64,000 nt of DNA from an uncultured Cytophagales bacterium (lineage in GTDB: Bacteria; Bacteroidota; Bacteroidia; Cytophagales; Bernardetiaceae). A model generated the notes under the pieces. It was not told the origin of the DNA. It saw nothing but the letters and a program-made list of their open reading frames with translations, and did not search any database. The stretch spans positions 253,534-317,533 of the forward strand of contig CAVXHP010000006.1 of assembly GCA_963761725.1 (NCBI GenBank), in the 5' to 3' direction. This document shows, one piece after another, positions 24,811 through 43,466 of this stretch (the stretch's first letter is position 1; each line of letters begins with the position of its first letter). A program made the position numbers and the translations under genes.

Positions 24811-24869
24811 ATAAATTTATTAATGTTTGTGTTCTGCAAACAACATTCCCAACATTTTTCTAAAATCAC

Positions 24870-24900
24870 AATCTCATAATTATTATTTTATCAAAATAAA
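24870..24900. repeat. 31-bp direct repeat AATCTCATAATTATTATTTTATCAAAATAAA (left copy; putative attL)
   Basis: It is identical to 40069-40099. It lies 137 bp upstream of the integrase gene. Confidence 0.7.
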
Positions 24901-25036: not shown

Positions 25037-26266
25037 ATGTCTTCTATCAAAACTATTTTGTACACACAGAAAAAACTAGCAGACGGACAGTCGCCAGTTA
25101 TGCTTTACGTTTATGAAGAAAAACCTTATCGTCTTTCACTAGGTTACAGAGCTTTTCCGAAAGACTGGGATAATAAGAAAGGGAGGTTTAATAAAAGCCA
25201 TCCTAATGCAAAAGCTAAAAACCTTGAATTACGTAAAAAGGAACTACTTGCTCACGAGCTTGTAGATGATTTTGTCAGAAAAGGAGAACGATTTGATTTC
25301 CCTACTTTCAAAAAAGTATTTAGAGGAGAAAAAGAAGAAAAACAGGAAGAGAAAAAAGAAGTTAATTTTTATGACTTTGTTGAAGAGCTAATTTCTGCTA
25401 AGAAAAAACTTGGAAAAATATCTACTTCAAGAGGTTACAAAGATGTTTACAATATCTTAAAGCGTTACCATCCAAAGCCATTAAAGTTTGAGGATATAAA
25501 CTATTCCTTTCTGAAAAAAATAGAAGCTGAACTATTTGCAATAGGGTCTAAAAAAGGAACTGTCTTTACTCGTATGGCTATACTAAGAGCTATGTATTAT
25601 GAAGGTATTAGATGCAATCACATTTCAAAAGATAAAAACCCCTTTAATAATTCCTTTAAAAAAGACGGATATAATTTTTCAAAATTTAAGTCAGATTTAA
25701 GACCTAGAGCTTTAGATAAAGAAGAGTTAGATAGGTTCAGAAATTTTGATATTAAGAAATATCCAGAGCTATCCTTAGCTTGGTATTATTTTATGTTTTC
25801 TTTCAAGTTGTTTGGGATTAATTTCACAGATATAGCAAAGCTAACAGACGATAATATTAAAGGCACACGTTTGGAGTATGTAAGACAAAAAACAGGTAAA
25901 TCCTTTAGTTTGCTACTAACAAAAGAAACACAAGATATTATAAAAAATTTTAGTTCTGAATCAGATTATCTCTTTCCAGTTCTCAAAAAAGAGAAGCATA
26001 ACACTATTGTAAAAATAAAAAACAAAATAGGTAATACTCAAAAGCAAATCAACGACGATTTGAGACAAATTGCACTAATCCAAGGCATTAGTAAATATAT
26101 CACGTTTTATACAGCTAGACATACTGCTGCAATGGCTTTAAAACGCAAGGGAATAAGCACAGATATTATTTCAGAAGCGTTAGGACACAGCGACTTAGCA
26201 GTTACACAACATTATTTGTCTAAGTTTGATAACAATGTTTTAGATAGTGCTATAATGGACTTGTAG
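25037..26266 (+). CDS. Tyrosine site-specific integrase (Bacteroidota type)
   Basis: An N-terminal arm-binding-like region (ILYTQKKLADGQSPVMLYVYEEKPYRLSLGY) is present. The C-terminal catalytic region is ...ARHTAAMALKRKGISTDIISEALGHSDLAVTQHYL, carrying the R..H..R..Y signature. Confidence 0.85.
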   Translation: MSSIKTILYTQKKLADGQSPVMLYVYEEKPYRLSLGYRAFPKDWDNKKGRFNKSHPNAKAKNLELRKKELLAHELVDDFVRKGERFDFPTFKKVFRGEKEEKQEEKKEVNFYDFVEELISAKKKLGKISTSRGYKDVYNILKRYHPKPLKFEDINYSFLKKIEAELFAIGSKKGTVFTRMAILRAMYYEGIRCNHISKDKNPFNNSFKKDGYNFSKFKSDLRPRALDKEELDRFRNFDIKKYPELSLAWYYFMFSFKLFGINFTDIAKLTDDNIKGTRLEYVRQKTGKSFSLLLTKETQDIIKNFSSESDYLFPVLKKEKHNTIVKIKNKIGNTQKQINDDLRQIALIQGISKYITFYTARHTAAMALKRKGISTDIISEALGHSDLAVTQHYLSKFDNNVLDSAIMDL

Positions 26267-26353: not shown

Positions 26354-26668
26354 ATGGATATTTCAAAATTTGGCTGGACACGAAAAGAACAAGAAGTAAA
26401 AACAGGAGATTATCATTTTTCTGGTCGTATTCTTATGACAGCTACTGTTCAAGAGCATTTAGAACAAGAGGTAATACAAGCTATTGTATTTGATGCCTTG
26501 AAATTTGCAAAAGAACAAAACGGAATAGACTATTTATTAGTCTATCTAAATGCAGAAACAGGCGAAAAGCTATTTTTCATTGATGAATCTACTAAGGCTG
26601 AATTACAGTCTGGTCAAAAGCCACAAGAGTATAATTATGCTACTCTTATGTTTGCAGAAGATTACTAA
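26354..26668 (+). CDS. Hypothetical protein (104 aa)
   Basis: Intact ORF directly downstream of the integrase. No family recognised. Confidence 0.3.
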   Translation: MDISKFGWTRKEQEVKTGDYHFSGRILMTATVQEHLEQEVIQAIVFDALKFAKEQNGIDYLLVYLNAETGEKLFFIDESTKAELQSGQKPQEYNYATLMFAEDY

Positions 26669-27090: not shown

Positions 27091-27165
27091 AGGTTAAATT
27101 AAATGTTTTAAACAAAAACTCCCCACTACTGACTATCAGTATAGTGAGGAGGATTACTATTTTAA

Positions 27166-28074: not shown

Positions 28075-28427
28075 AGTATTAGTTATTTTGTTTGAGTATA
28101 AAATAATATTGCGTTTGACTGTCTAATCATTAAAAAAGGTCTAGGTAGTCTTTAAGTTATTTTGTACTACCCAGTGTCGTAAATGTATCCTATTTACGGC
28201 ACTTTTTTTATGTGAAAAAGATAACAAACAACAATGCATCACAAACGTTAGTAATGTTATCATAAATATAAGTTATATTTTTTATTTAGGCAAATTATTT
28301 GATATAATAACTAACAAAAATCACGAATTTTTTTTTCGCAATAGTTTCTACATAAAATATATATTGCTATTATAGCTTACAATTTTGTAGTTTTGCAAAA
28401 AATCACAGCACTAAAACATAATTTATA

Positions 28428-29546
28428 GTGAGAAATAATACAACAAACGTTAGGAATATCTTATCTCTTTGGTTAGGTGTATTCCTTAGTAGGATGAGAC
28501 AACAAAGGAGTATTTCAGCTAATGACCTTAGTACGACAATGAAATTTTCTACTCCTTATTTACGTATGGTGGAAAATGGTCTTACCAACATAGCCCCAGC
28601 AAGAGCATTAGATGTATTGATAGGTTTTACAGACTTATTCAGTTTGAATGGTTACTTGTCATCACTTAGTAATTACTTAGTTGCTGTACAGTATCTATCA
28701 ACTTATGATGACGTAAAAAGCACAAAAGCTGCATTACAAGATTTGAAAGATGCAGATAAAGGTTTAGAAAAATTACTTTCAAATATTAATGATATACATT
28801 GGAAATATTTGGAAGAACAAGATTATGATGAACTAAAGAATAGTTTTGGAAAAAAGCCATTTGTTGAAGAGTTAGAAAAATATTTGACTAATCCATATTA
28901 TGCCCTTAATCAAGTAGATGGAATTGCTCAAAATTGGGCAGACTTATATGGTAAAACACCTTCACTATTTCAAGATTTTCTATATAGAAGATACAATTCA
29001 ATAAAAAACGACATAGAAGACTTAATCTCATACTCTCAATATTATAGCTTATCAGATTGGGAAGATAATAATGAAAAAATGATAGTAAAGTGTTTGGGGA
29101 TTACAAGAAGTATAGACCACTTACTATTAGATTCAGATAAGTTTAAGTGGAGCTTTTTGAAAAATAAAAGTTTTAAAAGTCTGAAATGTATAATATTTGA
29201 GCCGTACAATTCCCTTAAGGAAGATAAACTATTCAGTATAATTTCAGAACAATGCCAAATACCTATTGACAAAGCAAGACAACTTATTAATTTGGTTACA
29301 CTTCCCTCGGATGAGGTAGAGTATATTTGTAATCACTTACCAAGGTATACAAAAAGTTTAAATATAGATTACTGGCTTTATGAATTAAAGAACACAAATA
29401 AAATAGGTTTCTGTATTACTTTTCAAGATAGTTTACCTATAGAACTTAGTAAGCAATATTTAAACTATACTCTATATGATACTTCAGAGATTTTGAGTAA
29501 TGATGAAATACGAGAAATATTTACGATAATAAATCAATATTTATGA
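28428..29546 (+). CDS. XRE-type HTH regulator with a large C-terminal domain of unknown function
   Basis: The N-terminal RQQRSISANDLSTTMKFSTPYLRMVENGLTNI is a Cro/C1-like HTH. The track start is GTG at 28428. An alternative ATG lies at ~28494. The stop overlaps the next gene (ATGA). Confidence 0.45.
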   Translation: MRNNTTNVRNILSLWLGVFLSRMRQQRSISANDLSTTMKFSTPYLRMVENGLTNIAPARALDVLIGFTDLFSLNGYLSSLSNYLVAVQYLSTYDDVKSTKAALQDLKDADKGLEKLLSNINDIHWKYLEEQDYDELKNSFGKKPFVEELEKYLTNPYYALNQVDGIAQNWADLYGKTPSLFQDFLYRRYNSIKNDIEDLISYSQYYSLSDWEDNNEKMIVKCLGITRSIDHLLLDSDKFKWSFLKNKSFKSLKCIIFEPYNSLKEDKLFSIISEQCQIPIDKARQLINLVTLPSDEVEYICNHLPRYTKSLNIDYWLYELKNTNKIGFCITFQDSLPIELSKQYLNYTLYDTSEILSNDEIREIFTIINQYL

Positions 29547-30355
29547 AAGCCAAAATATTATTAGAAACTACTGAGAGTAGTATGCATCTAATAGCTAAAG
29601 AGTTTGGAACTCCAATCTTTGTTAGAAAAAATAAAATACTTAATCTCATATCTGATGTTGTCAGAGTAAAAGCAAACTTATTATACCAAGAAATTGAACT
29701 AAATGGAAATTTCCATTGTGATAATCTTACAGTTGAGAAAGTAAAAGTGTATGGTCTACTTGGCAAAACTAGTAATAGCATAAAAACTAATCTTTTACTA
29801 ACAAAAGACATAAAATTATATACTACATTGCCAGTATTGTCAGTCGGTAATAAGGTAATTATCTCATTTTCTAATTTACAGTTTACATCTAAGAATCAAA
29901 GAGTACTAGACCTTGATGATATACCTAAAGATAAATCTAGCCTTATTAATTTCTGTAAAGTATGTAGAGATAACTGTTGTGTATTAGGTAAAGTAAATGT
30001 AACAGAAGAGGAGTATAGAAAAATTTATGAATATACAGGACGAGGAGATTACTTTTTACGCAATGAAGATGGTGTTAGGCAAATTGACAATGAAAAGGGT
30101 AAATATTGTCGTTTTTTTGATAAAGAAAAAAAACTTTGCTCAATTCAACATATCAAACCAATTGAATGTAAAAGTTACCCAGTTTATTTTGGAGAGAAAG
30201 GTTCAATAAAAAATTTTTCAATCTATACTGGATGTCCTGCAAAAAGCTTTTTGACTGAAAAATATGTTTTACAGGCAAAAAAAGAGCTAGAGAAAATACC
30301 TAAGCAAGACAGAGAAAAATATTATGAGATTACTAAAAAACTGGGACAACTATGA
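29543..30355 (+). CDS. YkgJ-family putative Zn/Fe-chelating (CxxCxxCC) protein
   Basis: The CKVCRDNCC motif is present, plus a downstream cysteine cluster (CRFF...KLCSIQHIKPIECKSYPVYF). Its TGA stop overlaps the potA-like start. Confidence 0.5.
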   Translation: MKAKILLETTESSMHLIAKEFGTPIFVRKNKILNLISDVVRVKANLLYQEIELNGNFHCDNLTVEKVKVYGLLGKTSNSIKTNLLLTKDIKLYTTLPVLSVGNKVIISFSNLQFTSKNQRVLDLDDIPKDKSSLINFCKVCRDNCCVLGKVNVTEEEYRKIYEYTGRGDYFLRNEDGVRQIDNEKGKYCRFFDKEKKLCSIQHIKPIECKSYPVYFGEKGSIKNFSIYTGCPAKSFLTEKYVLQAKKELEKIPKQDREKYYEITKKLGQL

Positions 30356-31443
30356 TATTAGAACTATCAAATATAACAAAGCGTTTTCCTAAGACATTGG
30401 CAGTAGATAATATTTCTCTACAAGTTCAGGCTAATGACCACTTTTTCATTTTAGGCTCTAGTGGATGTGGAAAGAGTACGCTTTTAAATATGATAGCAGG
30501 TTTTATTAAACCTGATAAAGGAATTATAAAATTAGATGGAAATATAATAAATGAAATTTTACCTAATAAACGCCCTATTCATACTGTTTTTCAAGATTAT
30601 GCTCTTTTTCCTCATTTAAATGTATTTGAAAATATAGCATTTAGTTTAAAAGTTCAAAAAGTAAATAAGAGTAATATAAAACATAGAGTGGGAGAGATGC
30701 TAGAACTAGTTAAATTAAGTGGCTTTGAACTCCGTAGAGTTAATGACCTTAGTGGAGGAGAAAAACAAAGAATTGCATTAGCTAGAGCTTTAATAAATCG
30801 TCCTTTAATACTACTCTTAGATGAACCACTTTCTGCTTTAGATTCTAAATTGAAGCGTGAAATGATTGTAGATTTACAAAAAATCAAAAGAGATATTAAT
30901 TGTACATTCATTCACGTAACTCACGACCAATCAGAAGCTCTAAGTTTAGGGGATAAAATTGCAATAATGAGTAAGGGTAAAGTAATACAAGTAGATTCTC
31001 CTATGAACATTTATCAAAAACCTACTACTCATTTTACAGCTTCTTTTATGGGGAAAATAAATACTTTTGAAATAAATAATATATTTAATCGTAGTAATAG
31101 TATTTATATAGGGAAAGCCAAAGATGGTAGTTTATTTTCTTTTGTCTCTGATAAAAAGATTGAAAAAACTGTTTTACTTGGTATTAGACCAGAAAATATT
31201 ATTGTTAGCAAAATAAAAAATAAATCTTTGTTACCTGATTTCTCCTTAGAGAAAAATAAATTGATAGGAAAAATACTATTACAATCCTTTCAAGGTAGTG
31301 ATATTGAATATACATTATTAACATCAATAGGAGAGTTTATAGTGCGAGTTCCTTTAAGTAAAGTAGCAGATTTTAAAACTGAGGAAGAGCTTTTACTTGA
31401 GTGGGAGACTGAATCTTCAATAGTTCTAAATAAAAATGTATAA
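30352..31443 (+). CDS. potA: ABC transporter ATP-binding protein, PotA-like (spermidine/putrescine-type importer)
   Basis: Walker A (GSSGCGKST), the signature LSGGEKQRIALARAL, Walker B (LLLDEP) and a C-terminal TOBE-like extension are present. Confidence 0.7.
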   Translation: MILELSNITKRFPKTLAVDNISLQVQANDHFFILGSSGCGKSTLLNMIAGFIKPDKGIIKLDGNIINEILPNKRPIHTVFQDYALFPHLNVFENIAFSLKVQKVNKSNIKHRVGEMLELVKLSGFELRRVNDLSGGEKQRIALARALINRPLILLLDEPLSALDSKLKREMIVDLQKIKRDINCTFIHVTHDQSEALSLGDKIAIMSKGKVIQVDSPMNIYQKPTTHFTASFMGKINTFEINNIFNRSNSIYIGKAKDGSLFSFVSDKKIEKTVLLGIRPENIIVSKIKNKSLLPDFSLEKNKLIGKILLQSFQGSDIEYTLLTSIGEFIVRVPLSKVADFKTEEELLLEWETESSIVLNKNV

Positions 31444-32279
31444 TGAAAAAAATAAAAGTAAGTTGGATAAATAAAATACTGATATTTCCTTCTGGACTTT
31501 GGATAACAGCATTTTTTTTGATGCCCTTTTTTGTAGTTTTTATTTATACGTTTTTTAGTAGGGGTATTTATGGTAACATTGAGTACAACATCAATATAAA
31601 TAATTATTATAGAGCTTTTGAGTTTGTGTATGCTACATCTTTTTTTCGTTCATTAATATATGCTATACTCACTAGTTTAATAACTTTATTAATTGGATAT
31701 CCTGTTGCATATTGCATAGTTAAAATTTCAAATTTAAAGGTTAAAAGACTACTATTATTTCTTATAATACTTCCTTTTTGGTCAAATTATATTGCGAGAA
31801 TATATGCTTGGGCTATGCTACTGAGTGATAAAGGAATAGTATATCAATTACTATTTGAGTTAAATTTGATAGAAGAAAATCTAAGTATCTTATACTCATC
31901 AAACGCAGTTTATATTGGTCTAATTCATAATTATCTACCTTTTATGATACTATCAATATATGTCGCATTAGAAAACATAGATAAAAGGATATTAAATGCT
32001 TCCTATGATTTAGGTGCATCATTTAGTTACTCATTTATGAGAATTATACTACCCTTGTCTTATAGTGGAATTAGAAATGGATGTATAATGGTATTTAGTT
32101 TTGCAATAGCTGACTACGTAATACCTAACATACTTGGAGGTTCTAAAAAACTTCTAATAAGCAATGTAATTTCTAACCAGTTTATTACAACTAGAGATAT
32201 TCCTTTCGGTGCTACTTTAACAGTCTTATTCACTATTTTAGTATTTGCAATGATATATTACTTATATAAAAAAAATTAA
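31443..32279 (+). CDS. potB: ABC transporter permease, PotB-like
   Basis: Six TM segments and an EAA-like loop (NASYDLGASFSYSFMRIILPLS) are present. Confidence 0.6.
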   Translation: MKKIKVSWINKILIFPSGLWITAFFLMPFFVVFIYTFFSRGIYGNIEYNININNYYRAFEFVYATSFFRSLIYAILTSLITLLIGYPVAYCIVKISNLKVKRLLLFLIILPFWSNYIARIYAWAMLLSDKGIVYQLLFELNLIEENLSILYSSNAVYIGLIHNYLPFMILSIYVALENIDKRILNASYDLGASFSYSFMRIILPLSYSGIRNGCIMVFSFAIADYVIPNILGGSKKLLISNVISNQFITTRDIPFGATLTVLFTILVFAMIYYLYKKN

Positions 32280-32281
32280 AA

Positions 32282-33061
32282 ATGTTTGTAATGAATAAAA
32301 CCTTATCTATATATACATTCCTAATAATAAGTTTCTTATACATTCCTATAATTATACTAGCTATATATTCATTCAGTTCTGACCCCTATTCTATTTCTTT
32401 AAATAGTTTTTCTTTAGATGCATACATAGATTTATATAATGATAGAAGTTTTATATCAGCAATATGGAATAGTGTCATCGTAGCAATAATAGCATCTACA
32501 TTAGCTATAACTATTACAATTCCATTAGTTTATATTTTACACAAAAAGAAAAATATTATAGCGATAACAATAAAGAGTGTGTCCAAGTGGATTTTAATAG
32601 TGCCAGATATAAGTGTTGCTATTGGCATAATGATTTTATTTAAAGCTCTCAACTTCAATAGAGGTTTAGAAACAATTATTATTTCTCATACTACATTTTC
32701 TATAGCATATACAATACTAATAATTGAACCACATATTGAAAGTATTGTACCAAAATTAACAAATGCTGCGATGGATTTAGGTGCAACCGAAATACAAGTT
32801 ATTACAAGTATAATCATACCCTTGATAACTCCCAATTTAATAGTTGCTTTTTGTATTAATTTTACGTTATCTTGGGACGACTTTATTTTTTCTTTTTTCA
32901 ATTCAAGTGCAGGAAATTCTACTCTTTCTGTTTATATTTACACTCTTATAAAAAAAGGTGCTAATCCATCAATCAATGCTATATCTATCATATCTATGAT
33001 TGTATCATTGATTTTTATTACTATTAGCATAAAATTTCAAAGAATTTTGAACAAAATTTAA
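32282..33061 (+). CDS. potC: ABC transporter permease, PotC-like
   Basis: Six TM segments and an EAA-like loop (AAMDLGATEIQVITSIIIPL) are present. Confidence 0.6.
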   Translation: MFVMNKTLSIYTFLIISFLYIPIIILAIYSFSSDPYSISLNSFSLDAYIDLYNDRSFISAIWNSVIVAIIASTLAITITIPLVYILHKKKNIIAITIKSVSKWILIVPDISVAIGIMILFKALNFNRGLETIIISHTTFSIAYTILIIEPHIESIVPKLTNAAMDLGATEIQVITSIIIPLITPNLIVAFCINFTLSWDDFIFSFFNSSAGNSTLSVYIYTLIKKGANPSINAISIISMIVSLIFITISIKFQRILNKI

Positions 33062-33066
33062 CAATT

Positions 33067-34111
33067 ATGTTGAAGCATATAAAACATAGCCTATTTATAA
33101 CCATACTTTTCATTTTTGGAGGTTGTTCTTTTCGACAACAACAATAATAAAGAAAAAACAGACGAATTCATAAACGTCTATAATTGGACATATGTTATTC
33201 CTTCTGAGGTAATTACAGATTTTGAAAAAACATATCATGTGAAAGTAAATTATGATAATTACTCTTCTAATGAAGAATTATTAGCTAAAATACAAAGCCC
33301 ATCACATAATTACGATTTAATTTTTCCTAGTGATTATATGGTGCAAATAATGATAAAACAAGATTTATTAGCACCATTGAATTACAGTAATATTCCTAAT
33401 TCAGAAAATATTTCAGACGATTTTAAAGGCTTATTTTTTGACCCTAAAGATAAATATAGCATACCTTTTGAATGGTCTACAGCAGGTATTAGTGTCAATA
33501 CTAATAAAGTTCAGAATTACAATAAGTCGTGGGATATACTATTTGATGAAAAGTTTAAGAATGATGTAACAGTGTTAGATGACATGAGGTATGGTATTTT
33601 ACCAGCTATATTTAAGCTAGGTTACAATCCAAACACAAAGGAAGAAGACGAGATTAATAAAGCAAAAGAATTGATGTTTAAACAAAAAGAATTTGTTAAA
33701 GCATATAGTAGTGATACTTATATTGATATGCTAAAAAAAGAAGAAGTTGCTATTGCTTATGGTTGGAGTATAGACTTATTAAAAATCCAAAAGGAAAAAC
33801 CACACATTCGTTATTTTATTCCCAAAGAAGGTTCTACAAAAATTATAGAATTGATGTGTATTCCAAAAGAATCTAAAAGAAAAGGTTTAGCAGAAAAGTT
33901 TATTAATTACATACTAATTCCAGAGATTCACGCTAAAATCTCTAACTATTCAATGGCAACAAACCCTAATGAGAAGGCAAAACCTTTTATAAACGAAAAT
34001 TATAGAAGTATTAGTGATAGCGTTGATATGGACAAGCTCTTTTTTCTGAAAGATGTTGGAGACGCAACTATATTTTATGATAATGCTTGGAATGATATAA
34101 AAAATAAGTAA
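33067..34111 (+). pseudogene. potD: PotD/PotF-like periplasmic polyamine-binding lipoprotein; the signal peptide is out of frame with the body
   Basis: The body (33116-34111, TTG start in the track) has PotD-like motifs (VYNWTYVIPSEVITDFEKTYHVKVNYDNYSSNEELLAKI). The lipoprotein signal MLKHIKHSLFITILFIFGGCSF (33067-) is in the -1 frame relative to the body. Removing one T from the T4 run at 33129-33132 joins them. Confidence 0.55.
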
Positions 34112-34257
34112 TGTGATTAAAATTAGTTTTAACTTTTTTAATCAAAATGAACCTACTCCCCCACCAAATAGCCCAAAAGTTATGAGTTTCCGAAAGGACA
34201 ATCTATAATTATAGAAAAAAAATAAAAGGTAAATTCAAAGAAGAGCTAAGAAACGGC

Positions 34258-34737
34258 ATGACTTACCTAGAGTTTGTACCATTTTTAGAGTATGCAAAAT
34301 CACTTGGCAATACCTTTCCGAAAGATTCAGAAATATTTCCGAATATTCAGAAAGAGGCACAAAATGATTCAGAAAAAGTGAAAGAAAACAAGATAGAAAA
34401 GCCAAATTGAAATTTCTGAAATATTTCGGAAAGGGTTGCAGAAGTTTCCGAAAGCAAGGAAAATACCCAAAACCGAAATAAAAAGAAAAAACAGCTAGAA
34501 AATTATAGCAATAATCTAAATGAACAAGTTCAAAAATATGCACTTGCATTTAATGAAGAAAAAGCAGAGAGAAAAGAATTACAAAAAAAATACGATACTT
34601 TAGAAACTAGATTTTTGGATAAGGTAGAAGAAGTAGCTCGTTTTAAATGAAAAACAGCTTTATTCTTTGCACTTTTGGGAGGACTTGCTTTTGCTCTTAC
34701 ACTAATTTTAGTTTACCTACTCTTTCTCAAAACCTAA
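34258..34737 (+). other. 160-codon frame open only if TGA is sense: coiled-coil protein with a C-terminal TM anchor (possible mobilization/partition-like protein)
   Basis: It is a single frame from ATG 34258 to TAA 34735-34737. In-frame TGA codons lie at 34408, 34417 and 34648. There is no in-frame TAA/TAG. The C-terminus KTALFFALLGGLAFALTLILVYLLFLKT is a TM helix. Confidence 0.4.
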
Positions 34738-34814
34738 AGAAAAACAACGTTGTCTTTTTTTATTTTACTATTTTATATATTTTACGCAGCTTAAAGACCA
34801 GTTCAGACCTAGTG

Positions 34815-34912
34815 TTTCAGACTTAAAGATGGAATAAGATAGGTCTAAATAAGAGTATTATGGGGTAAAATATGAATAAATTAGGGTTTAAGATGGAATA
34901 AGATAGGTTCTA
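34815..34912. repeat. Putative iterons: two copies of TTAA(A)GATGGAATAAGATAGGT(C/T)CT spaced ~73 bp apart, 120-220 bp upstream of the Rep_3 gene
   Basis: Direct repeats lie at ~34815-34840 and ~34888-34912. A related copy (CTAAGATGGAATGTTGCATAGG) lies at ~36768-36790. Confidence 0.45.
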
Positions 34913-35034
34913 TATATGAGAAAAATGAGGTTGTTGAAAAAATAAGTATGGAAATAAAAGTTTTCCACTCATATTTTAGCTTGTATTTATGTAAATTTTC
35001 CTTAGATTTTTAGTGTTTAGCTTATCTTACTGCA

Positions 35035-36231
35035 ATGGAAAAAGCCACACAACAGTTAGTAGTAAAGCATAATTATCTGATTAATGCCAAATATGATTTT
35101 TCTCTTTTAGAAATGAAGGTATTTTTGTTAGCCGTTTCTAAAATACAGCCACAAGATAAAACAACTACCAAGTATAGAATTTATGTAAAAGATTTTAAGC
35201 AACTTGTAAACACACAATCTAAGCAGGAATATAAAAGAGTGAAAGCAACCGTTAAAAGTCTAATGAAAAAGATTGTAGAAATACCAAGAGGAGAAGATAA
35301 ATCTGTTTTGATGTGTCAATTATTTTGACCTTCTGTTTACCACGACGGAGAAGGCTATGTAGAAATTCAGTTTTATGAAGAAATAAGAGCTTATTTATTA
35401 GAACTCAAAGAGAGATTTACACAGTATAACCTTCACAATATTGTCAGAATAAAATCCTTTTCCAGTATTAGAATCTATGAATTACTCAAACAGTACGAAA
35501 CGATAGGAAAAAGAACTTTTGAACTTACAGAGCTAAAAAGTATTCTAAAGGTAGAGAAAAAGTATAAATCATACGCTGATTTTAAAAGGTATATTTTAAA
35601 GAGAGCGCAGAAAGAAGTTTGAGCCTATTGTGATATTTCATTTACCTTTAAAGAAATCAAAAAGGGTAGGAGAGTAAATAAATTAGTGTTTTACATCCAA
35701 AGGAAGGAAAAAAAAGATACTCAAAACCCAGTTCAGACCGTCGTAGAAAATGATTTAAGTGCAAAATTTTTGCTTACCCCTAGACAAGTCCGTGAAGTGC
35801 TAAAAAAATATGAGAATGATTTGCTTCATTTAGAGAAAATTCTTTGAGAAATAGCTAAGAAATATAAAACAGGAGAAATAGAAAAATTAGGAGCTTATAC
35901 TTTCAAAACTTTAATAGAAGGAAAACACGAAAAAAGTCTTTTTGATGAAGAAGTCCAAATAGAAAAAGACAAAAAGCAACAGAAGAAAGCAGCAAAGATA
36001 GAAGAACAAAAACAGAGTGAAAAAGATAAACAGAAAACACAAGAAGAAAAAGAGCAGCTAATCACTCAGATAGAAAAAGCACTTTCAGAAGATGAAAAAA
36101 ATAGTTTGGAAGAGGAATTTAAAACTCATATTTCAAAACCTCATTTGCAACAACTAAGCGAACGCCCACGAGGAAAGAAGATATTACGACAAAATTTTTT
36201 GGCTAAAAAGTTCCTATCCGAAGACGATTAA
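35035..36231 (+). pseudogene. Rep_3-family plasmid replication initiator containing three in-frame TGA codons (open only if TGA is sense)
   Basis: The N-terminus VVKHNYLINAKYDFSLLEMKVFLLAVSKIQ is Rep_3-like. So are the core RFTQYNLHNIVRIKSFSSIRIYELLKQYE and KSYADFKRYILKRAQKEV...FTFKEIKKGRRVNKLVF. The frame is continuous from 35035 to TAA 36229-36231. TGA codons lie at 35326, 35620 and 35845. There is no TGG codon in the ORF. Confidence 0.7.
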
Positions 36232-36254
36232 ATTTTATTTTCAACTTTGTTTGA

Positions 36255-36689
36255 ATGGAAAAGACAAAAGCAGATTTTGATTTGCGAAACAAGCAGAAAC
36301 AAAAAATAGAAAAAAGTGATGATTCTATACTTTCAGTTCGTGAATGACAACTTTGGCGATATTATGAGTGAATGAATGTAGGTAACGAACAATCAAAATG
36401 AAGAGAATGAAATTTTAGAAGAGTAGGTTTGATTCTAAACAAAAAAGTAGGTCGTTGAATGGTTCTTATTCTACCTATCACAACAAAATACAAAGAAGAA
36501 CATAGGGTTTACAAACTTCTCATTAAGAACCCTACTCAATACGGACTTTCAAATCCAAGTGCATTTATCTTAAATCGTTTCAACGTTATTTCTACAAAAA
36601 GATTAATTAAGGAAAAATCTGATTCTGTTTTACACTCTAATTTTTTGCAACTTTTGAAGAGGAAAATAATTAGCACTATTCACGAATAA
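36255..36689 (+). pseudogene. MazF/PemK-like toxin gene containing five in-frame TGA codons (open only if TGA is sense)
   Basis: A single frame runs from 36255 to TAA 36687-36689. TGA codons lie at 36345, 36369, 36399, 36408 and 36456. ...VGNEQSK-x-RE-x-NFRRVGLILNKKVGR-x-MVLILPITTKYKEEHRVYKLLIK...ISTKRLI parallels the MazF G-x-E-Q...R-P...P-x-T-T core. Track ORF 36459..36689 is only the tail of this frame. Confidence 0.5.
36624..36670. repeat. ~47-bp direct repeat A (copy 1), core TCTGTTTTACACTCTAATTTTTTGCAACTT
   Basis: The same 30-bp core plus a similar tail recurs at 39182-39228. Together they bracket the nuclease cassette. Confidence 0.6.
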
Positions 36690-36879
36690 AGAAATACATC
36701 ATTATTTATTTTTCTCTAATATTAAATTAGCAACTTTTTAGATTATTTGAACTTAATTACCATTTCTAAGATGGAATGTTGCATAGGGTGGATAGTTATA
36801 AGAATATTTTGTAGAAATAATGTTATATTTGATTAGAGTTAGTGTTAACAAATTTACTTACAAATAACGTGCATTATAA

Positions 36880-38241
36880 ATGATTATAGTTAGACCTAGG
36901 TTGAATGATTATCATAACATTCCATTCACACAAGAAGAAGTAGATTTTGCAATTCCTTATTTGAATGAAGATATACCTTTATATGTTGATCCATTTTTAT
37001 TGTGGAAATCTCCATCACTTCAAGATAATTCTTTGCATACAGTTATCATCAACTCATTTAATCATCTTGGTCATTTAGTTAATACAAATAAAGAAGACAA
37101 AGCTATTGATATTCTGGTACAAACAAGTGAATGTAATGAAGTTGGAATGGGTAATTCAAAAACAAGAATAGGAAAACCAATAGGACATAAAACAGCTAAA
37201 GAAATATTGAATTTATTTATAAATATTCCTCAGTTAAAAAGCTCTGGTTTCGTCCATTTTGAAAGTATTCAACTACTTGTTAATGGTATTTCAAAGGATA
37301 GAATTAGTGATTTTACTACTAGCTTTATTAAATCTTTTCTAATAGATTATACAATAGAACAATGTGAAAAATATCACATACCTATTCATTCTGTAAAAAT
37401 AGAATCACTTTATAGTTACAAAGAAAATTCTATAATTTCAGAGAACGTTTATTTACCTACGAATCCTGAAAATAACTCTCCTATTTTGTTTGTTCCAAAA
37501 AGATGGTTAAGATTCATTCCTTGGATAAATTTTGATGACTACTATAAAACCTTTCAATTAAAAGATACACAACAACAAAAAGATAGAATTCCATTATTGA
37601 ATTACAATAGACAGAATTTCGATGCTGTTATGGCTTATGTAAAAATTAAGGAAAGTGAAAGAAAATTATGTAAAAATGACTTGATATTTAAGCCTATTTC
37701 AAAGACTTCTGTTACTAGAAAGGTAAATACAATTATTAAACTAGATACAGGCAAGACAAATAATGCTGATATTGAATTTGAAAAAAATATTTGTTCTGTA
37801 CTTCCTACGACATTCTTTCCATATTTGGATTTTGCTGAAGCACAAAGTAGAACTGTAGATGGAGTACATATAAGAGATTTAATATTTTATAATAATCGTT
37901 CTCACTCTTTCCTTGAGGAAATATATGAACAGTATGAATGTAAACAGATTATTTTTGAACTAAAGAATGTTAAGGAGCTAAGTAATGAACACGTAAATCA
38001 ACTGAATAGATACTTAAAAGAGCAATTTGGTAAATTTGGTGTTTTAGTAACGAGAAGCCCTCCATCTAAGAAAGTCCTGAAAAACATAATAAATTTATGG
38101 TCAGGTCAGCGAAAATGTATTTTAGTTCTTACAGATGAAGACATGAAATTAATAGGCAGTCTTTATCAAGGAAATCAAAGACCAGCCATTGATATTTTAA
38201 AGAAAAAATATGTAGAGTTTACAAGAGATTGTCCATCCTAA
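36880..38241 (+). CDS. 453-aa protein with an unknown N-terminal domain and a C-terminal Mrr-like PD-(D/E)xK restriction-endonuclease-like domain
   Basis: The C-terminal region TVDGVHIRDLIFYNN...QIIFELKNVKELSNEHVNQLNRYLKEQFGKFGVLVTRSPPSKKV matches the hydrophobic-D ... hydrophobic-ExK ... vLvT layout of the Mrr_cat/PD-(D/E)xK fold. This is a motif-level call. Confidence 0.45.
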   Translation: MIIVRPRLNDYHNIPFTQEEVDFAIPYLNEDIPLYVDPFLLWKSPSLQDNSLHTVIINSFNHLGHLVNTNKEDKAIDILVQTSECNEVGMGNSKTRIGKPIGHKTAKEILNLFINIPQLKSSGFVHFESIQLLVNGISKDRISDFTTSFIKSFLIDYTIEQCEKYHIPIHSVKIESLYSYKENSIISENVYLPTNPENNSPILFVPKRWLRFIPWINFDDYYKTFQLKDTQQQKDRIPLLNYNRQNFDAVMAYVKIKESERKLCKNDLIFKPISKTSVTRKVNTIIKLDTGKTNNADIEFEKNICSVLPTTFFPYLDFAEAQSRTVDGVHIRDLIFYNNRSHSFLEEIYEQYECKQIIFELKNVKELSNEHVNQLNRYLKEQFGKFGVLVTRSPPSKKVLKNIINLWSGQRKCILVLTDEDMKLIGSLYQGNQRPAIDILKKKYVEFTRDCPS

Positions 38242-38253
38242 ATTTTAAACTAG

Positions 38254-38649
38254 ATGAATGAAGAGCAAATTAACAATTTTGAGAAATGTCAGACACAAAT
38301 TGAAGGATTATTATCTGAGATAGGTTTATTATCTAAGAAAAATCCTAATGATGCAGTAAATAAATTCAAACTTATTTTTATTAATGAATTAATTACGAAT
38401 GCTAACATAATTCTGACTTCTGACTATATGCCTTTCAAATCGTTCAATGATTTTGATGTAGATTCTGTCCCCTCTAATAGTGATGTTACTTTCATCCTAT
38501 CACAATATCTAAATTGTTTTGAGAAACTAAGAGCAGATAATATATACTGTAAGTCTGAATACATAGGAGGTAAATACCATAATAATTGGTATTGGAGAAC
38601 AGGTAATAAAAAATTAATAGCTACTTCACAACCAAACAAAATAAAATGA
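38254..38649 (+). CDS. Small protein A (131 aa), paralogous to the next gene
   Basis: It shares KKNP-D..NKFK...PSNSD...QY...R...W blocks with 38646..39062. It starts 13 nt after the nuclease-domain gene. Confidence 0.4.
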   Translation: MNEEQINNFEKCQTQIEGLLSEIGLLSKKNPNDAVNKFKLIFINELITNANIILTSDYMPFKSFNDFDVDSVPSNSDVTFILSQYLNCFEKLRADNIYCKSEYIGGKYHNNWYWRTGNKKLIATSQPNKIK

Positions 38650-39062
38650 AAAATAACAAAAAAAATGAAAAAGATTTATTTCCTTCTCAAGAAGAAGTAG
38701 ATAAATTCAAAATGTTAGAAGGTTTAATTGAATCTATTACTTTAGAAATGAAGGAATTTGCTAAGAAGAAGCCTGATGAAACATTGAATAAGTTTAAGAC
38801 TAATACAATAAATAATATTCTAAAAGACTTGAAAGAAATCATGAGAAAGGAAGCTACCAATGATTATCTTGTTTTATTAGATAAAGATGTTTTACCATCT
38901 AATAGTGATGCTGTGATTGTCATAGGACAATATAACTCAGCAATATCTCAATTTAGAGCAAAATATAATGGTAAAACAGACGAATATTCGTTACAACGTT
39001 GGTTCACACAAGAAAATCCAGGAACTCATTATAAGCAAAGAGGTTTATTAGATGGGTTGTAA
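38646..39062 (+). CDS. Small protein B (138 aa), paralog of 38254..38649
   Basis: Its start overlaps the preceding stop (ATGA). The paralog pair shares conserved KKKPDETLNKFK and PSNSD blocks. Confidence 0.4.
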   Translation: MKNNKKNEKDLFPSQEEVDKFKMLEGLIESITLEMKEFAKKKPDETLNKFKTNTINNILKDLKEIMRKEATNDYLVLLDKDVLPSNSDAVIVIGQYNSAISQFRAKYNGKTDEYSLQRWFTQENPGTHYKQRGLLDGL

Positions 39063-39181
39063 GTTTTATTTTAGTTAAAAATTATAAGCTACATCTATTA
39101 ATTTAGTGGTAGCTTTTTTTATATAAGTAACCATATTGTTAGCAAATAAAAAACATTTAATTTATTATAATTGAATCTCCT

Positions 39182-39228
39182 TCTGTTTTACACTCTAATT
39201 TTTTGCAACTTCTCAAAAGGAAAAATTT
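39182..39228. repeat. ~47-bp direct repeat A (copy 2)
   Basis: Matches 36624-36670. Confidence 0.6.
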
Positions 39229-39233
39229 CATTT

Positions 39234-39294
39234 AAAAAAATCGCCTACTCACACTAAGGAGAGTAGGAAGCTGGAGACTCAAATTAAGGTCTCT
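39234..39294. repeat. Repeat R (copy 1): AAAAAAATCGCCTACTCACACTAAGGAGAGTAGGAAGCTGGAGACTC plus a second small hairpin
   Basis: A 7-bp stem hairpin CCTACTC/GAGTAGG with an AAGGA-containing loop. A ~48-nt match lies at 39978-40027. Confidence 0.55.
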
Positions 39295-39442
39295 ATGGCA
39301 TTTGCTTTTAAGCTAATGCCTATGAAAATAGCTTATTGATTTTTAAAGAAAGATCAAGTTTTTATTATTTCTACTTATTTACAACTTAATGCTCTAATTG
39401 TCGTACTCATATAGAAGATTTTTTTAATTAAACCTTACTATT

Positions 39443-39778
39443 ATGTCAATAAGAAATGTATTAAGCATAAACTATAGCTTTACACAAGAACAAGAAGAAA
39501 TGATTAATTCTGAAATTCATAAACACGCTAAAGAAAATGCAGGTTTTCTAAGTAAATACTCTGTTGAGTTTAAGTCTGTTAAAATCACTGGGAATAAAAA
39601 TGGAGATTTTATTACTCTTAAAGGGAGTGGTACTGTACAAGGGCATATCACAAAAAGTAGTAATTCTAATTATACCCAAGAGGGTGTAGAGGAAAAAACA
39701 GCATACTTTAATTTTGATGTTTCCATAGATGAAGAAGATGAAATAGTGGTTGAATCTAATAGCACAACTTATATCTAA
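39443..39778 (+). CDS. Hypothetical protein (111 aa)
   Basis: Intact ORF bracketed by the R repeats and followed by a terminator hairpin. Confidence 0.3.
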   Translation: MSIRNVLSINYSFTQEQEEMINSEIHKHAKENAGFLSKYSVEFKSVKITGNKNGDFITLKGSGTVQGHITKSSNSNYTQEGVEEKTAYFNFDVSIDEEDEIVVESNSTTYI

Positions 39779-39796
39779 ATATGTTCTTTTTACTAA

Positions 39797-39840
39797 AAAT
39801 AGCCATTCATAATCAAAAATTATGAGTGGCTATTTTTCAT
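39797..39840 (+). terminator. Rho-independent terminator (ATAGCCATTCATAA...TTATGAGTGGCTAT followed by TTTT)
   Basis: A near-perfect 14-bp stem plus a T-run lies directly after 39443..39778. Confidence 0.5.
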
Positions 39841-39977
39841 TTTATAGGCATTGAAAGTATTAATGATTTATTTCATTTTTCAATTCAGAAAAGAAGTTGA
39901 ATTTATTTTGTCTTTTGGTTTTTTGCCTTTCGGTTCGCTCGTGGAAAAAGAAGAAAAGGAATAGCGAAATGTTGTTT

Positions 39978-40027
39978 AAAAAAAATTGCCTACTCACACT
40001 AAGGAGAGTAGGATGTTGGAGACTCTG
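39978..40027. repeat. Repeat R (copy 2)
   Basis: Matches 39234-39280. It lies ~40 bp before the right-hand att repeat. Confidence 0.55.
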
Positions 40028-40068
40028 CCTTTGTTAGTATTCCCACCAACGATATTTTCAATATTTCT

Positions 40069-40099
40069 AATCTCATAATTATTATTTTATCAAAATAAA
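40069..40099. repeat. 31-bp direct repeat (right copy; putative attR)
   Basis: Identical to 24870-24900. It lies 57 bp upstream of the sucD start. Confidence 0.7.
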
Positions 40100-40155
40100 A
40101 GGTATTTTTGTCTATATCATTTTTTACATTCACAAAAAATAACTATAACGAAACT

Positions 40156-41043
40156 ATGAGCGTACTTGTAAATAAAGATTCTAAAATTATCGTTCAAGGA
40201 TTTACTGGAAAAGAAGGTTCTTTTCATGCCGAACAAATGATCGAATACGGAACTAATGTAGTAGGTGGAGTTACACCAGGAAAAGGTGGTACTTTGCATT
40301 TGGGTTTGCCTGTTTATGATACGGTTGCTGATGCTGTTGAAGATGCAAAAGCTGATACTTCAATTATTTTTGTTCCACCTGCGTTTGCTGCCGATGCCAT
40401 TATGGAAGCTGCTGATGCTGGAATTAAGGTAATTATTGCGATTACAGAAGGAATTCCTGTTCAGGATATGGTAAAAGCAAAAGCATATGTTTTGGCTCAC
40501 AAAGATTGTCGTCTGATAGGTCCAAACTGTCCTGGAGTAATTACGCCAGGTGAAGCAAAAGTAGGAATTATGCCTGGTTTTGTATTCAAGAAAGGTAAAA
40601 TCGGAATTGTTTCTAAATCAGGAACATTGACGTATGAAGCTGCCGACCAAGTAGTAAAAGCAGGAATGGGAATCTCAACAGCTATCGGAATCGGTGGTGA
40701 CCCAATCATCGGAACAACTACAAAAGAAGCCGTAGAACTTTTGATGAATGACCCAGAAACAGAAGCAATCGTTATGATTGGTGAAATTGGTGGAAACTTA
40801 GAAGCAAATGCTGCTCGTTGGATTAAAGAAACAGGTAATAAGAAGCCAGTAGTTGGTTTTATTGCTGGACAAACAGCTCCAAAAGGAAAACGTATGGGAC
40901 ACGCAGGTGCAATAATCGGAGGTGCAGATGATACAGCAGAAGCAAAAATGCGTATTATGCGTGAATGTGGAATCCACGTGGTAGATTCTCCTGCAAATAT
41001 TGGAGTTACGATGAAAGAAGTTTTGGATAAAGCTCACGCTTAG
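40156..41043 (+). CDS. sucD: Succinyl-CoA ligase (ADP-forming) alpha subunit
   Basis: [45 protein letters not shown]...the phosphohistidine-loop region...is present. ATG at 40156 is preferred over the track start at 40108. Confidence 0.85.
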
Positions 41044-41205: not shown

Positions 41206-42486
41206 TTAATCCTCCAACGTCTGCAAATCTTTCCAAATTCGTTGAATTACGTTTTCTTCTTTTGGATTATAAACCCAATTGTGGTCAAAGACTTCCAATA
41301 TTTCTGCATTTGCATCTTTAGCAATGGCAAGACTGTGAAAACGAGTATCTTTTTGGCGTTCGGTTTCCATTCGTTTTATAAAATCTTCTCTCAAAGAATA
41401 CATCACAAAATCCGAAACCATAAGTACATCGGCATCTTTAAAGTCATTTTCTTTTAACAGGTTTAATGTTTCAGAAAGTGCGGGTGTGGCATCTGTTCCA
41501 CCATCAAAAGACATAGATAAGAAATCTACAATTCTATCCAACGATTCTGCAATATCATCTAAGCGAATTTTCTTTATTCCTACCGAAAACGATATTAAAT
41601 AAGCCTTTCTACTTTCTTTTGCAGCCATTTTCATAATAGCAAAACAGAGCGTTTTGGCAATCTGTGAAGGTGTTCCTTGCATTGAACCACTTGTATCAAT
41701 ACAGACTATAAATGCTCCTTTTTCTTTCTTTTTTTGATGTTGGTGTGAAAATGTTTCTTCTTCAGAATTATAAATAGTCTTTGTTCCTTCGTATTGAAAA
41801 GATAATAATTGACTATCAGCATATTTTTTCAAAAACATCCATTCGGTTTCTGGCGTTGCTAGAAAAGCAATTTCAGACGGCAAGACCGTATTCAAATCAT
41901 TACTTGTTCGTGTTCCGTTTATTTCAGAACGCAAATGTGGGTCTTTTACTTTGGATTGATAAACGACAACTTCTTTATATTCTTCTTCTTCAGTTTCAAT
42001 TTGTGCTTCACGCATTTTTCCTAGTAAATCTACCAGTTCTTGAATCGCTGTTTCGTTTTCTAAAATAGCAGCATATTTTTCTAGTGCTTCAAAACCCGTT
42101 TTTTTCCAAAGTGCTTGCGACAAATCCCAATAACGACCTACTTCCATTGCAAAAGGCGAAATCAGTTTGCCTAATTTTTCCAAATCATCAGCTTTTTGAT
42201 AGAGTTTTTGAGAAAAATCTTCGCTTGCCTCTTCTAAATAGTGAGCTTGAAATTCTAACCATTTTGCTGTCAAAAGTGCGTCCCATTGTGCCAGTAAATC
42301 AGCAATTAAAATATCTAAAGGTAACTTTTTTTCTGCTTGTGGGTCGTATTCTTTTGAGAGAATAAAATCTTTACTTTGAGGTATTAAATCTTTAAATTTT
42401 TGAGTATAGAAGCTACTATCTAACTCTTCTCTATTATATCGAATAGAAAGATAATTGATAAGATTATCCCAATCTGTCAGATACAA
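41206..42486 (-). CDS. von Willebrand factor A (VWA) domain protein with an N-terminal helical domain (ViaA/CoxE-like)
   Basis: A MIDAS motif (DTSGSM) and a VWA core (...LISFSVGIKKIRLDD...DGGTDATPAL...VLMVSDF) are present. Confidence 0.6.
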   Translation of the reverse strand: MYLTDWDNLINYLSIRYNREELDSSFYTQKFKDLIPQSKDFILSKEYDPQAEKKLPLDILIADLLAQWDALLTAKWLEFQAHYLEEASEDFSQKLYQKADDLEKLGKLISPFAMEVGRYWDLSQALWKKTGFEALEKYAAILENETAIQELVDLLGKMREAQIETEEEEYKEVVVYQSKVKDPHLRSEINGTRTSNDLNTVLPSEIAFLATPETEWMFLKKYADSQLLSFQYEGTKTIYNSEEETFSHQHQKKKEKGAFIVCIDTSGSMQGTPSQIAKTLCFAIMKMAAKESRKAYLISFSVGIKKIRLDDIAESLDRIVDFLSMSFDGGTDATPALSETLNLLKENDFKDADVLMVSDFVMYSLREDFIKRMETERQKDTRFHSLAIAKDANAEILEVFDHNWVYNPKEENVIQRIWKDLQTLED

Positions 42487-42600
42487 ATGGGTTGGTTTGT
42501 GCGCCCATGCATCAAACTTGTCTTGTTCTTCTTGAAATGGATTTTTTGCATTAATTTTTTTGTCTGTATCTTTTATCCATTTTATGGTGTCATTTATTAT

Positions 42601-42897: not shown

Positions 42898-42979
42898 AAT
42901 TGTCAGTTATCAGTTTTTCAGTAAACAGTTATCGCTTGAATACCTTTTGCTGGGTAGAATTGTTATTTAATGGATAAAC

Positions 42980-43465: not shown

Positions 43466-43466
43466 T

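Follow-up and report, generated by a model that had tools for sequence, protein, structure and literature searches.

This report concerns a 64,000-nucleotide (nt) window of contig CAVXHP010000006.1 (assembly GCA_963761725.1, an uncultured Cytophagales bacterium), that is, the whole stretch of DNA that was analysed, to which all coordinates refer unless another sequence is named. The window carries an integrase island, and within the island lies a plasmid-type module of three genes (positions 34147-36689). By comparative analysis, the module is shown to come from a replicon using an Absconditabacteria-type code, to form a conserved part of the backbone of a site-specific island in a standard-code host, and to be under purifying selection at the protein level. 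It is written in the Absconditabacteria/Gracilibacteria-type code, with UGA read as Gly and very probably CGA as Trp. The original prediction, made from the letters of the window, had proposed that the three genes are a foreign plasmid backbone with recoded TGA, carried in the integrase island of a host that itself uses the standard code, and this is supported; among the sources that it listed, the candidate phyla radiation (CPR) proved to be the right one. Conservation of the module in three genomes and purifying selection on it are what could not be read from the window sequence alone. DNA that none but Absconditabacteria-type cells can read is joined physically to the chromosome of a cultured standard-code bacterium and has been kept intact by selection over long periods.

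The module comprises 738 codons with 12 in-frame TGA, 1 TGG, and 5 CGA codons. Its three frames (34147-34737, 35035-36231, and 36255-36689) each end in TAA and contain no internal TAA or TAG and no frameshift. A recount agreed with the prediction on these points and on the 3, 3, and 5 in-frame TGA codons in 34258-34737, 35035-36231, and 36255-36689. The first open reading frame (ORF1) had been taken to start at 34258; a syntenic homologue on metagenome contig L001 places the true start at 34147, with a twelfth TGA at 34183. TGG had been claimed to be missing from the replication initiator (Rep) gene, and the counts are 0 in that gene, 0 in 34258-34737, and 1 in the third, MazF-like frame. Frames open by chance were ruled out, as a TAA or TAG is expected about every 16 codons at ~70% AT. 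Matches to the Pfam models Rep3_N (136 bits) and Rep3_C (59 bits) run across the in-frame TGAs. Outside the module, the window (31% GC) holds long table-11 ORFs in the standard code. About 11 window ORFs of at least 120 amino acids (aa), 8 from the host and 3 from the island cargo, terminate at TGA with the next TAA or TAG 2-45 codons further on, and these ends and short distances bear out the statement that host genes stop at TGA. In-frame TGA was found in none of the 5,707 host codons and, as had been stated, in none of the 3,410 codons of the other island genes. An identical module is present on ERZ25039505 contig_18618, which is 99.78% identical to the window over 21 kb. An assembly chimera or artefact was excluded by this identical module on an independent contig and by the closed genome of Bernardetia sp. 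OM2101, which also has the module.

UGA is established as Gly in the module on the basis of alignment columns, profile scores, and codon usage. Translation with tables 4 and 25 followed by scoring against Pfam models, a check proposed with the prediction, was run, and the Gly-substituted versions scored higher than the Trp versions on all three models, with PemK above its threshold solely with Gly. The turn Gly of the ORF1 helix-turn-helix (HTH) is TGA in both the window and L001, and two Gly codons of the window, GGC (ORF1 Gly37) and GGA (in Rep), align with TGA in L001. TGA codons common to the window and L001 number three in ORF1 and one in Rep. In the MazF-like ORF, each of the five TGA codons aligns with Gly in one homologue or more. 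Of the Gly codons, TGA accounts for 40% in the module and 41% in L001. With TGA counted as Gly, the Gly content of the module is 4.1%, compared to 3.7-4.7% in the other island genes and 7.0% in host genes; read as Trp, TGA would leave the module with 2.4% Gly and 1.8% Trp. TGA is never used as a terminator in the module: TAA closes each of the three genes, here and in OM2101 alike. The first TGA of Rep had been placed on a conserved Trp of Rep_3 initiators, and this did not hold: among 33 homologues, the column has S in 21, A in 7, V in 2, and T in 2, and the sole W belongs to protein P0001, itself a TGA rendered as Trp by a gene caller. The conserved Rep_3 Trp lies two columns upstream. Table 4 (TGA = Trp), which the prediction had preferred, is contradicted by every informative column, all of which give Gly, and table 25 (TGA = Gly), which it had kept open, is borne out by TGA on conserved Gly columns and by swaps with GGN in relatives. 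Selenocysteine was rejected as not credible: the 12 sites are spread over three unrelated proteins and always fall at Gly columns, and Rfam gave no match to a selenocysteine insertion sequence (SECIS).

A second reassignment is probable at CGA. Absconditabacteria are reported to read CGA and CGG as Trp as well (Shulgina and Eddy, PMC8629427), and three of the five CGA codons in the module align with Trp in the nearest homologues. In Rep, 'KKIL-CGA-QNFLAK' (codon 385) aligns with 'KQIL-TGG-YNFLAK' of P0001, and several more distant Reps have a conserved Trp in this motif. In the MazF-like ORF, 'QL-TGG-CGA-TAT-TAT-GAG-TGA' aligns with 'DVWWYHEG' of a homologue in the standard code, and the recoded contig L014 has 'EL-CGA-TGG-YHE-TGA' there; codon 11 is CGA in the window and TGG in L014. 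Reading CGA as Trp gives the module a normal Trp content (6 of 738 codons), and all five CGA codons are retained in every copy examined. The near-absence of TGG is best explained by CGA encoding Trp. The alignments thus make CGA = Trp well supported in the module; the columns are few, and the support is strong at two of them and suggestive overall.

The make-up of the module is shown, by domain and repeat content, to be that of the replication and maintenance backbone of an iteron plasmid. The initiator (35035..36231, forward strand; TGA at 35326, 35620, and 35845; 2 CGA, 0 TGG) belongs by profile match to the Rep_3 family, with winged-helix domains WH1 (PF01051, 136.3 bits, cut-off 22.4) and WH2 (PF21205, 59.3 bits, cut-off 21.1) and a K/E-rich tail; its matches to the NCBIfam RepM and RepE models are under those models' cut-offs. 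In the standard code, Rep terminates at residue 97, and all three genes end early in the host code. ORF1 (34147..34737, forward strand; TGA at 34183, 34408, 34417, and 34648; 1 CGA) encodes an N-terminal HTH, a coiled coil, and a C-terminal transmembrane (TM) helix. Its N-terminus, MNLLPHQIAQKL-TGA-VSERTIYNYRKK, holds the HTH motif (after MNLLPHQIAQKL-TGA it reads VSERT...), and ORF1 is 51% identical to the syntenic L001:1575-2099. The MazF/PemK-like ORF (36255..36689, forward strand; TGA at 36345, 36369, 36399, 36408, and 36456; 2 CGA, 1 TGG) follows rep after a gap of 23 nt. Its family match is weak: Pfam PemK gave 26.1 bits (cut-off 23.1) only with TGA read as Gly, the PHROG MazF-like family gave 21.9 bits, and MazF9 in PDB was a weak match with E ~0.5. 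The assignment to MazF is weak, and no antitoxin gene adjoins the ORF, which has rep 23 nt upstream and a defence cassette downstream.

The spacer between ORF1 and rep begins with a near-invariant non-coding block (34738..34830, forward strand) that includes the ORF1 terminator region, an AT-rich stretch, and TTCAGAC repeats. The block, which is the first ~95 nt of the spacer, is nearly unchanged in three copies, while synonymous sites differ by ~25%, and it is presumed to be the origin core or a DNA-unwinding element. Two iterons of 19-22 nt (34826-34844 and 34890-34908, forward strand) adjoin this AT-rich block upstream of rep. They are 64 nt apart and include two exact 19-nt copies, against 0.01 expected. 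The variable core of the iterons co-varies within each element, being TAAG in both copies in the window and ACTT in both in OM2101. The 12-mer CCAGTTCAGACC was found in the invariant block at 34798-34809 and again within rep at 35728-35739, with 0 expected by chance; it may be a second binding site for Rep or a host factor, or an operator.

The nearest relatives of all three module genes lie on TGA-recoded contigs that use the Absconditabacteria/Gracilibacteria type of code. In a search of 5.8 billion proteins, the closest Rep homologue was P0001 (53% identity), which sits on metagenome contigs L001-L003 of 2.9-5.5 kb and whose gene has three in-frame TGA codons; the 'W' residues in its database entry are TGA codons translated by a table-4 gene caller. 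The gene order of L001 is like that of the window (HTH-coiled-coil-TM gene, spacer, rep). L001 is heavily recoded, with 17 TGA in one ORF of 267 codons, and its TGA codons fall at the invariant Gly of the Fic motif 'AIE-G-N' and at the Gly of the MerR motif 'G-Y'. At the end of the plasmid-like contig L001 (5141-5506), a fragment of a P-loop ATPase matches HerA/DUF87 and TrwB coupling-protein domains; judging from this fragment, the plasmids related to the module may be conjugative or mobilisable.

For the MazF-like protein, the word-indexed search gave no match, and an exhaustive HMMER search with the TGA-free C-terminal part gave four proteins, two of them full-length (P0143 and P0144). P0144 is on a standard-code contig, and P0143, the closest full-length relative of the MazF-like gene, is on the recoded contig L014 (ERZ26858972 contig_18, 135 kb). 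L014, which codes for one protein of >4,100 aa, shows 152 TGA in frame among 5,805 codons, and all 13 of its genes with a stop inside the fetched locus end in TAA or TAG. The code of L014 was read from a 40-sequence TMEM43 alignment, in which TGA falls at columns that are G in 40/40 and 39/40 sequences, CGA at three columns that are W in 40/40, AGA and AGG where R stands in 40/40, and TGG at three columns in which W is predominant or universal. L014 is probably a fragment of an Absconditabacteria chromosome; its TMEM43 protein gave no match to a named CPR lineage, and the recoded relatives were assigned to a taxon by their code and not by marker genes. In scans with the module, GTDB genomes gave only OM2101 and one Cytophagales metagenome-assembled genome (MAG), JGI metagenomes gave one match at 25%, and PLSDB and INPHARED gave a best match of 37%. 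IMG/VR gave no match for Rep, ORF1, or the MazF-like protein.

The proteins of the window cluster with those of Bernardetia (Bacteroidota, Cytophagales), a standard-code genus. The island is 15.2 kb long (24856-40099) and lies between def and sucD, which are adjacent in the island-free B. litoralis DSM 6794; the window is homologous to that genome up to 24177 and again from 40045. The island is bounded by att-like direct repeats of 45 nt, the left at 24856..24900 and the right at 40055..40099 (both forward strand), the latter just upstream of sucD (40108-41043), with a 31-nt core identical in the two copies. Upstream of its own sucD, B. litoralis has this sequence (attB) just once, with 1 mismatch. 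From its integrase, its flanking repeats, and the empty site in a relative, the island is classed as a member of the tyrosine-integrase islands. The tyrosine integrase (25037..26266, forward strand; domains Arm-DNA-bind_5, SAM_5, and Phage_integrase) is in the standard code, has no TGA, and ends in TAG. It is followed by a backbone ORF of 104 aa (26354..26668, forward strand) without a family match, possibly an excisionase or regulator, which is kept in OM2101 and in a third carrier, the Cytophagales MAG MFD03250.bin.2.105 (MFD). The integrase and the 104-aa gene have no TGA among 24 Gly codons (P ~5e-6 at the TGA share of the module), and neither ends in TGA. In the 104-aa gene, CGA and CGC are exchanged between copies, which fits Arg in the standard code. 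Both genes evolve as standard-code genes.

In OM2101, a cultured isolate with a closed genome, the island occupies the same site and its integrase is 91.8% identical to that of the window at the nt level. The OM2101 module is 92.4% identical over 2,524 nt with the frames open and 12 of 12 TGA and 5 of 5 CGA codons kept. The MFD MAG holds the third module copy at the same site (93.7% identity, Rep intact). The fourth copy, that on ERZ25039505 contig_18618, shares its assembly with the Cytophagales MAG copy. The module junctions are the same in all three islands, on the left at 34146/34147 and on the right at the 3' end of the MazF-like gene plus the segment at 39174. The window is nearer to MFD than to OM2101 in the module and again in the integrase region, which is a weak pattern. 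The island carriers are not each other's closest relatives, OM2101 being nearest to the island-free strain Wsw4-3y2, and synonymous divergence (dS) is 0.2-0.45 for the island, below the 0.35-0.8 of the host. The island has therefore moved between lineages or been repeatedly lost.

Selection on the module was measured as the ratio of non-synonymous to synonymous divergence (dN/dS) computed under code 25. Between the window and OM2101, there are 97 synonymous and 49 non-synonymous changes (dS 0.27, dN/dS 0.105; binomial P = 1e-34 against neutrality), with dN/dS of 0.15 for ORF1, 0.06 for Rep, and 0.17 for the MazF-like gene. Rep is at 0.05-0.08 in all three pairs. It is equally constrained before and after its first TGA (codons 99-398, dN/dS 0.064), and the synonymous:non-synonymous counts on its branches are 21:3, 26:10, and 17:5. 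The integrase (dN/dS 0.06) and the 104-aa gene (0.07) have diverged to a degree similar to the module. No indel separates the window from OM2101 in 2,223 nt of coding sequence, whereas the same pair differs in the 297-nt spacer by 17% and by 2 indel columns. In a neutral simulation with 146 random substitutions, 6.3 new TAA or TAG codons were expected and none was seen (P(none) = 0.002). As read from these alignments, the marks of selection are those of a working replicon and not of decaying DNA, in line with the earlier claim that the genes are not ordinary pseudogenes, which is upheld by purifying selection across the copies of three genomes.

Since the full-length frames have been kept by selection though the host stops early, the module proteins would be products of a cell in which UGA means Gly (and CGA means Trp). 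Our leading reading, held with slightly less than even confidence, is that selection acts in such a cell, and that Bernardetia and an Absconditabacteria-like episymbiont or predator exchange the element, or the module at the least, in a cycle. While in Bernardetia, the element would persist in integrated form, thanks to an integrase that is neutral between the codes, and its replicon would be silent; once in the recoded cell, Rep would be translated and bind the iterons, and the element would replicate as a plasmid. The codon reassignments would then form a host-specific gate on the replication and toxin genes. Such a gate is favoured by the contrast between a TGA-free integrase and a recoded replicon, by two reassignments that lie beyond any single suppressor, and by the lack of any TGA-to-GGN change. 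The full form of this proposal, a dual-host shuttle with an integrase neutral in both codes and a replicon and toxin that only a UGA = Gly/CGA = Trp cell could read, the code being a host-range switch, is a tentative suggestion held with a little less confidence again.

Several observations weigh against cycling between two hosts. The cargo is standard-code throughout, with TGA as the stop of three of its genes, so the element has clearly spent time in standard-code cells. No association of Bernardetia with Absconditabacteria was documented in the literature searched. No close copy of the module in a recoded genome or on a free plasmid was found in GTDB genomes, JGI metagenomes, or IMG/VR, and the nearest recoded relative of Rep is just 53% identical. 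The MFD copy shows damage: ORF1 has two compensating indels (-1 and +1), one or both of which fall in an A-run, and these may be long-read errors; the MazF-like gene has one TGA changed to TAA, the only one of the 12 that is not kept; and the integrase has an internal deletion of ~1 kb (window 25312-26352 missing; L011 5109-5893). This island copy is probably immobilised, judging from the deletion, with its rep still intact. There are only three or four copies, which makes branch-level tests thin. No GGA/TGA or TGG/CGA swap was seen among the three Bernardetia copies, where ~1.5-2.5 would be expected had they diverged in a recoded host, a comparison of low power.

One-way, repeated import is the alternative that survives best, although it is considered unlikely. 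It holds that the island is resident in Bernardetia and that its module is re-acquired or overwritten by homologous recombination from Absconditabacteria-like plasmids, with selection acting in the donor only and the inert passenger refreshed before it decays. Purifying selection without translation in the host would be accounted for in this way, as would the standard-code signature of the integrase and cargo, the decay of the integrase-deleted copy, and the position of the nearest relatives of Rep, ORF1, and the MazF-like protein on recoded contigs. Repeated import is harder to reconcile with identical module junctions in three islands and with the lack of a donor plasmid closer than 53%, and the same weak relatedness in module and integrase, with the window nearer to MFD in both, fits co-inheritance better.

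A lower probability still is given to decoding in the host itself, in which island-bearing Bernardetia would translate the module by a UGA suppressor tRNA encoded elsewhere or by leaky readthrough, with TGA throttling or timing expression. Selection is indeed seen in copies that are all from Bernardetia, one of them a cultured isolate; no close copy is known from a recoded host; and recoded phages of standard-code Bacteroidota with suppressor tRNAs are known (PMC10879173, PMC11210395). Against this, no tRNA or other Rfam RNA was found in the 64-kb window or in flanks of about 8-17 kb at each island copy, and no suppressor tRNA was found in about 20 kb around each of the other island copies or on L001-L003; the suppressor-tRNA alternative raised with the prediction thus lacks support in the window. 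Host TGA behaves as an ordinary stop, and no unusual tandem stops accompany it. The base following TGA is A in seven cases, G in three, and C in two, giving no bias that would favour readthrough, and three to five readthroughs per protein would leave a negligible yield. A suppressor would also leave CGA at conserved Trp positions unfixed, and none of the 12 TGA codons has become GGN, the change that a standard-code host should favour.

That the module is dead cargo, three pseudogenes drifting neutrally in Bernardetia after a single ancient transfer from a recoded donor, is very improbable. The genes are untranslatable in the host code, the MFD copy has its TAA and indels, and the host genome has ordinary nonsense mutations in other genes, all of which would fit. 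The reading fails against the dN/dS of ~0.1 (P = 1e-34), the lack of coding indels next to 2 indel columns in the 297-nt spacer, the 0 new TAA or TAG codons where neutrality predicts 6.3 (P = 0.002), the near-invariant origin block, and the co-varying iterons. A table-4 origin, with TGA = Trp and a Mollicutes-like replicon or code-4 phage as the source, can be dismissed almost entirely: relatives P0001 and P0143 were translated with Trp by gene callers and the module is nearly without TGG, but its informative TGA columns are all Gly or a small residue and never Trp, GGN and TGA are exchanged between relatives, TGA on L014 falls at G in 40/40 homologues with TGG at W, a Trp reading would give 1.8% Trp and just 2.4% Gly, and phage genes are absent with no match in phage collections.

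Compared to Rep_3 (RepE/RepA/RepB-type) iteron plasmids, such as those of the marine Bacteroidota Chondrinema litorale and Aureispira, the module has the same WH1 and WH2 initiator, direct repeats and an AT-rich block upstream of rep, and a small regulator and a toxin-like gene flanking rep. The closest curated plasmid Reps are ~37% identical. The module differs in its UGA = Gly/CGA = Trp code and its location in a chromosomal island, and this putative replicon has only two clear iterons, fewer than classical origins. With the MazF/PemK type II toxins, the MazF-like protein shares a weakly matched family and the motifs N-terminal G-x-[LIV]-W-W and G-N-E-Q-S-K-G; it departs from them in a 30-residue N-terminal extension and the lack of an adjoining antitoxin in its locus, and membership is not established. 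The resemblance to Absconditabacteria (SR1) and Gracilibacteria, which use table 25 (PMC8629427, PMC4032931), lies in TGA at ~40% of Gly codons and in TAA ends, and for Absconditabacteria also in CGA at Trp columns with TGG nearly absent. Unlike their genes, the module is embedded in and co-inherited with a standard-code Bacteroidota chromosome, with no tRNA-Gly(UCA) nearby.

Stop-codon-recoded phages (TAG = Gln or TGA = Trp; crAss-like, Lak) likewise contain in-frame stops relative to the host code, and their recoding has been proposed to gate the expression of a subset of genes (PMC10879173, PMC11210395). Those phages carry their own suppressor tRNAs, whereas the module has no tRNA and no phage genes, and it reassigns TGA to Gly plus the sense codon CGA, beyond the reach of a suppressor. 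No phage structural match above noise was found (PHROG for ORF1, the MazF-like protein, and the 104-aa gene; cargo proteins scanned by Pfam and PADLOC), and INPHARED and IMG/VR gave no phage match for the module. On these counts, a recoded phage is excluded for the module. Some mobile elements have been inferred to interact with code-25 CPR bacteria as well as with standard-code ones, including Bacteroidetes (Liu et al. 2023, PMC10746230), and the island is like those phages in bridging the two codes, with the integrase and the 104-aa gene as its TGA-avoiding genes. The phages avoid TGA throughout; here, one module is strictly code-25-only and the rest is standard code, in an integrative plasmid-like island that is physically in the standard-code partner. 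Tyrosine-integrase defence islands share with it the terminal integrase, the 45-nt repeats, the empty attB in a relative, and the repeat-bounded defence slots, and differ in that here the carrier host cannot read the replication genes. No description of an Absconditabacteria-code plasmid module inside a standard-code chromosome was found in the literature searched. Alternative-code mobile elements and elements bridging CPR and non-CPR bacteria are known kinds; if it were confirmed that the element is code-gated and dual-host, this would be something categorically new.

Alternative genetic codes are usually viewed as barriers to gene flow. That selection has kept intact genes which their host cannot read suggests an exchange of DNA with an episymbiont lineage not yet in culture. 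Should a recoded partner express the module, this would be the first sequence-level link of a code-25 CPR lineage to a specific candidate host genus, and it would exemplify codon reassignment employed to restrict the expression of a plasmid-like element to one host. Were the dual-host reading true, the island would be a physical record of associations for a CPR lineage with mostly unknown hosts. If the module is instead expressed in Bernardetia, a Bacteroidota bacterium would possess an unknown capacity to decode UGA (and CGA). As OM2101 is in culture with a closed genome, either outcome is directly testable. Standard pipelines call the module genes as fragments of 50-100 aa, which is an annotation blind spot, and similar modules may be common and overlooked.

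The remaining island genes are standard-code cargo. After the 104-aa ORF come a tRNA_bind protein, a 2-oxoglutarate (2OG)-Fe dioxygenase, two unknown genes, and a four-gene pot-like ATP-binding cassette (ABC) transporter. The protein with the tRNA-binding domain (26728-27090, reverse strand; 120 aa; PF01588, 57 bits) occurs in the window-type island only and not in OM2101, and no link between it and the recoding was shown. Downstream of the module lies a cassette for the candidate defence system PDC-M36 (36880..39062, forward strand), with a 453-aa protein A (DUF8370/PD-(D/E)XK) and B proteins of 131 and 138 aa (731, 167, and 123 bits in PADLOC). This cassette was inserted in the 3' end of the MazF-like gene, the last ~7 codons of which were swapped out upon insertion, and it is bracketed by a 51-nt duplication. 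Copy 1 of the repeat (36616..36666, forward strand) is the 3' end of the MazF-like gene and copy 2 (39174..39224, forward strand) is a remnant of its original 3' end; the two segments are contiguous in OM2101 and MFD. An adjacent cargo slot is bounded by two 66-nt repeats (39215-39280 and 39960-40025, forward strand), each of which includes a perfect hairpin (CCTACTC...GAGTAGG) and might serve for the recombination of cassettes. The OM2101 island differs in cargo, which includes a thymidylate synthase, a Ham1-like protein, and a cyclic-oligonucleotide-based antiphage signalling system (CBASS). In OM2101 and MFD, a CBASS pair (Cap15, SMODS) lies just downstream of the module between equivalent 66-nt repeats (L010 18663-20933; L011 11898-14177). 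The alternation of cassettes suggests that the island acts as a site of defence-cassette exchange.

Two host genes in the window are broken. An hgmA-like (HgmA_N) gene (4354-5544, reverse strand) is split by one in-frame TGA where B. litoralis has CGT (Arg), a change that has nothing to do with the Gly recoding. A VWA_CoxE gene (41206-42906, reverse strand) is broken by TAG and is intact (563 aa) in the 99.78%-identical contig L004; the break is put down to strain-level pseudogenisation or a consensus error. A TGA-specific tolerance in the host was considered and rejected, the former being a CGT-to-TGA nonsense change and the latter a TAG, both ordinary lesions. Between the VWA and GldD genes lies a DUF3368/UPF0175 pair (PIN-like toxin and antitoxin; 42980-43745, reverse strand), in place of which B. 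litoralis has an ORF of 94 aa.

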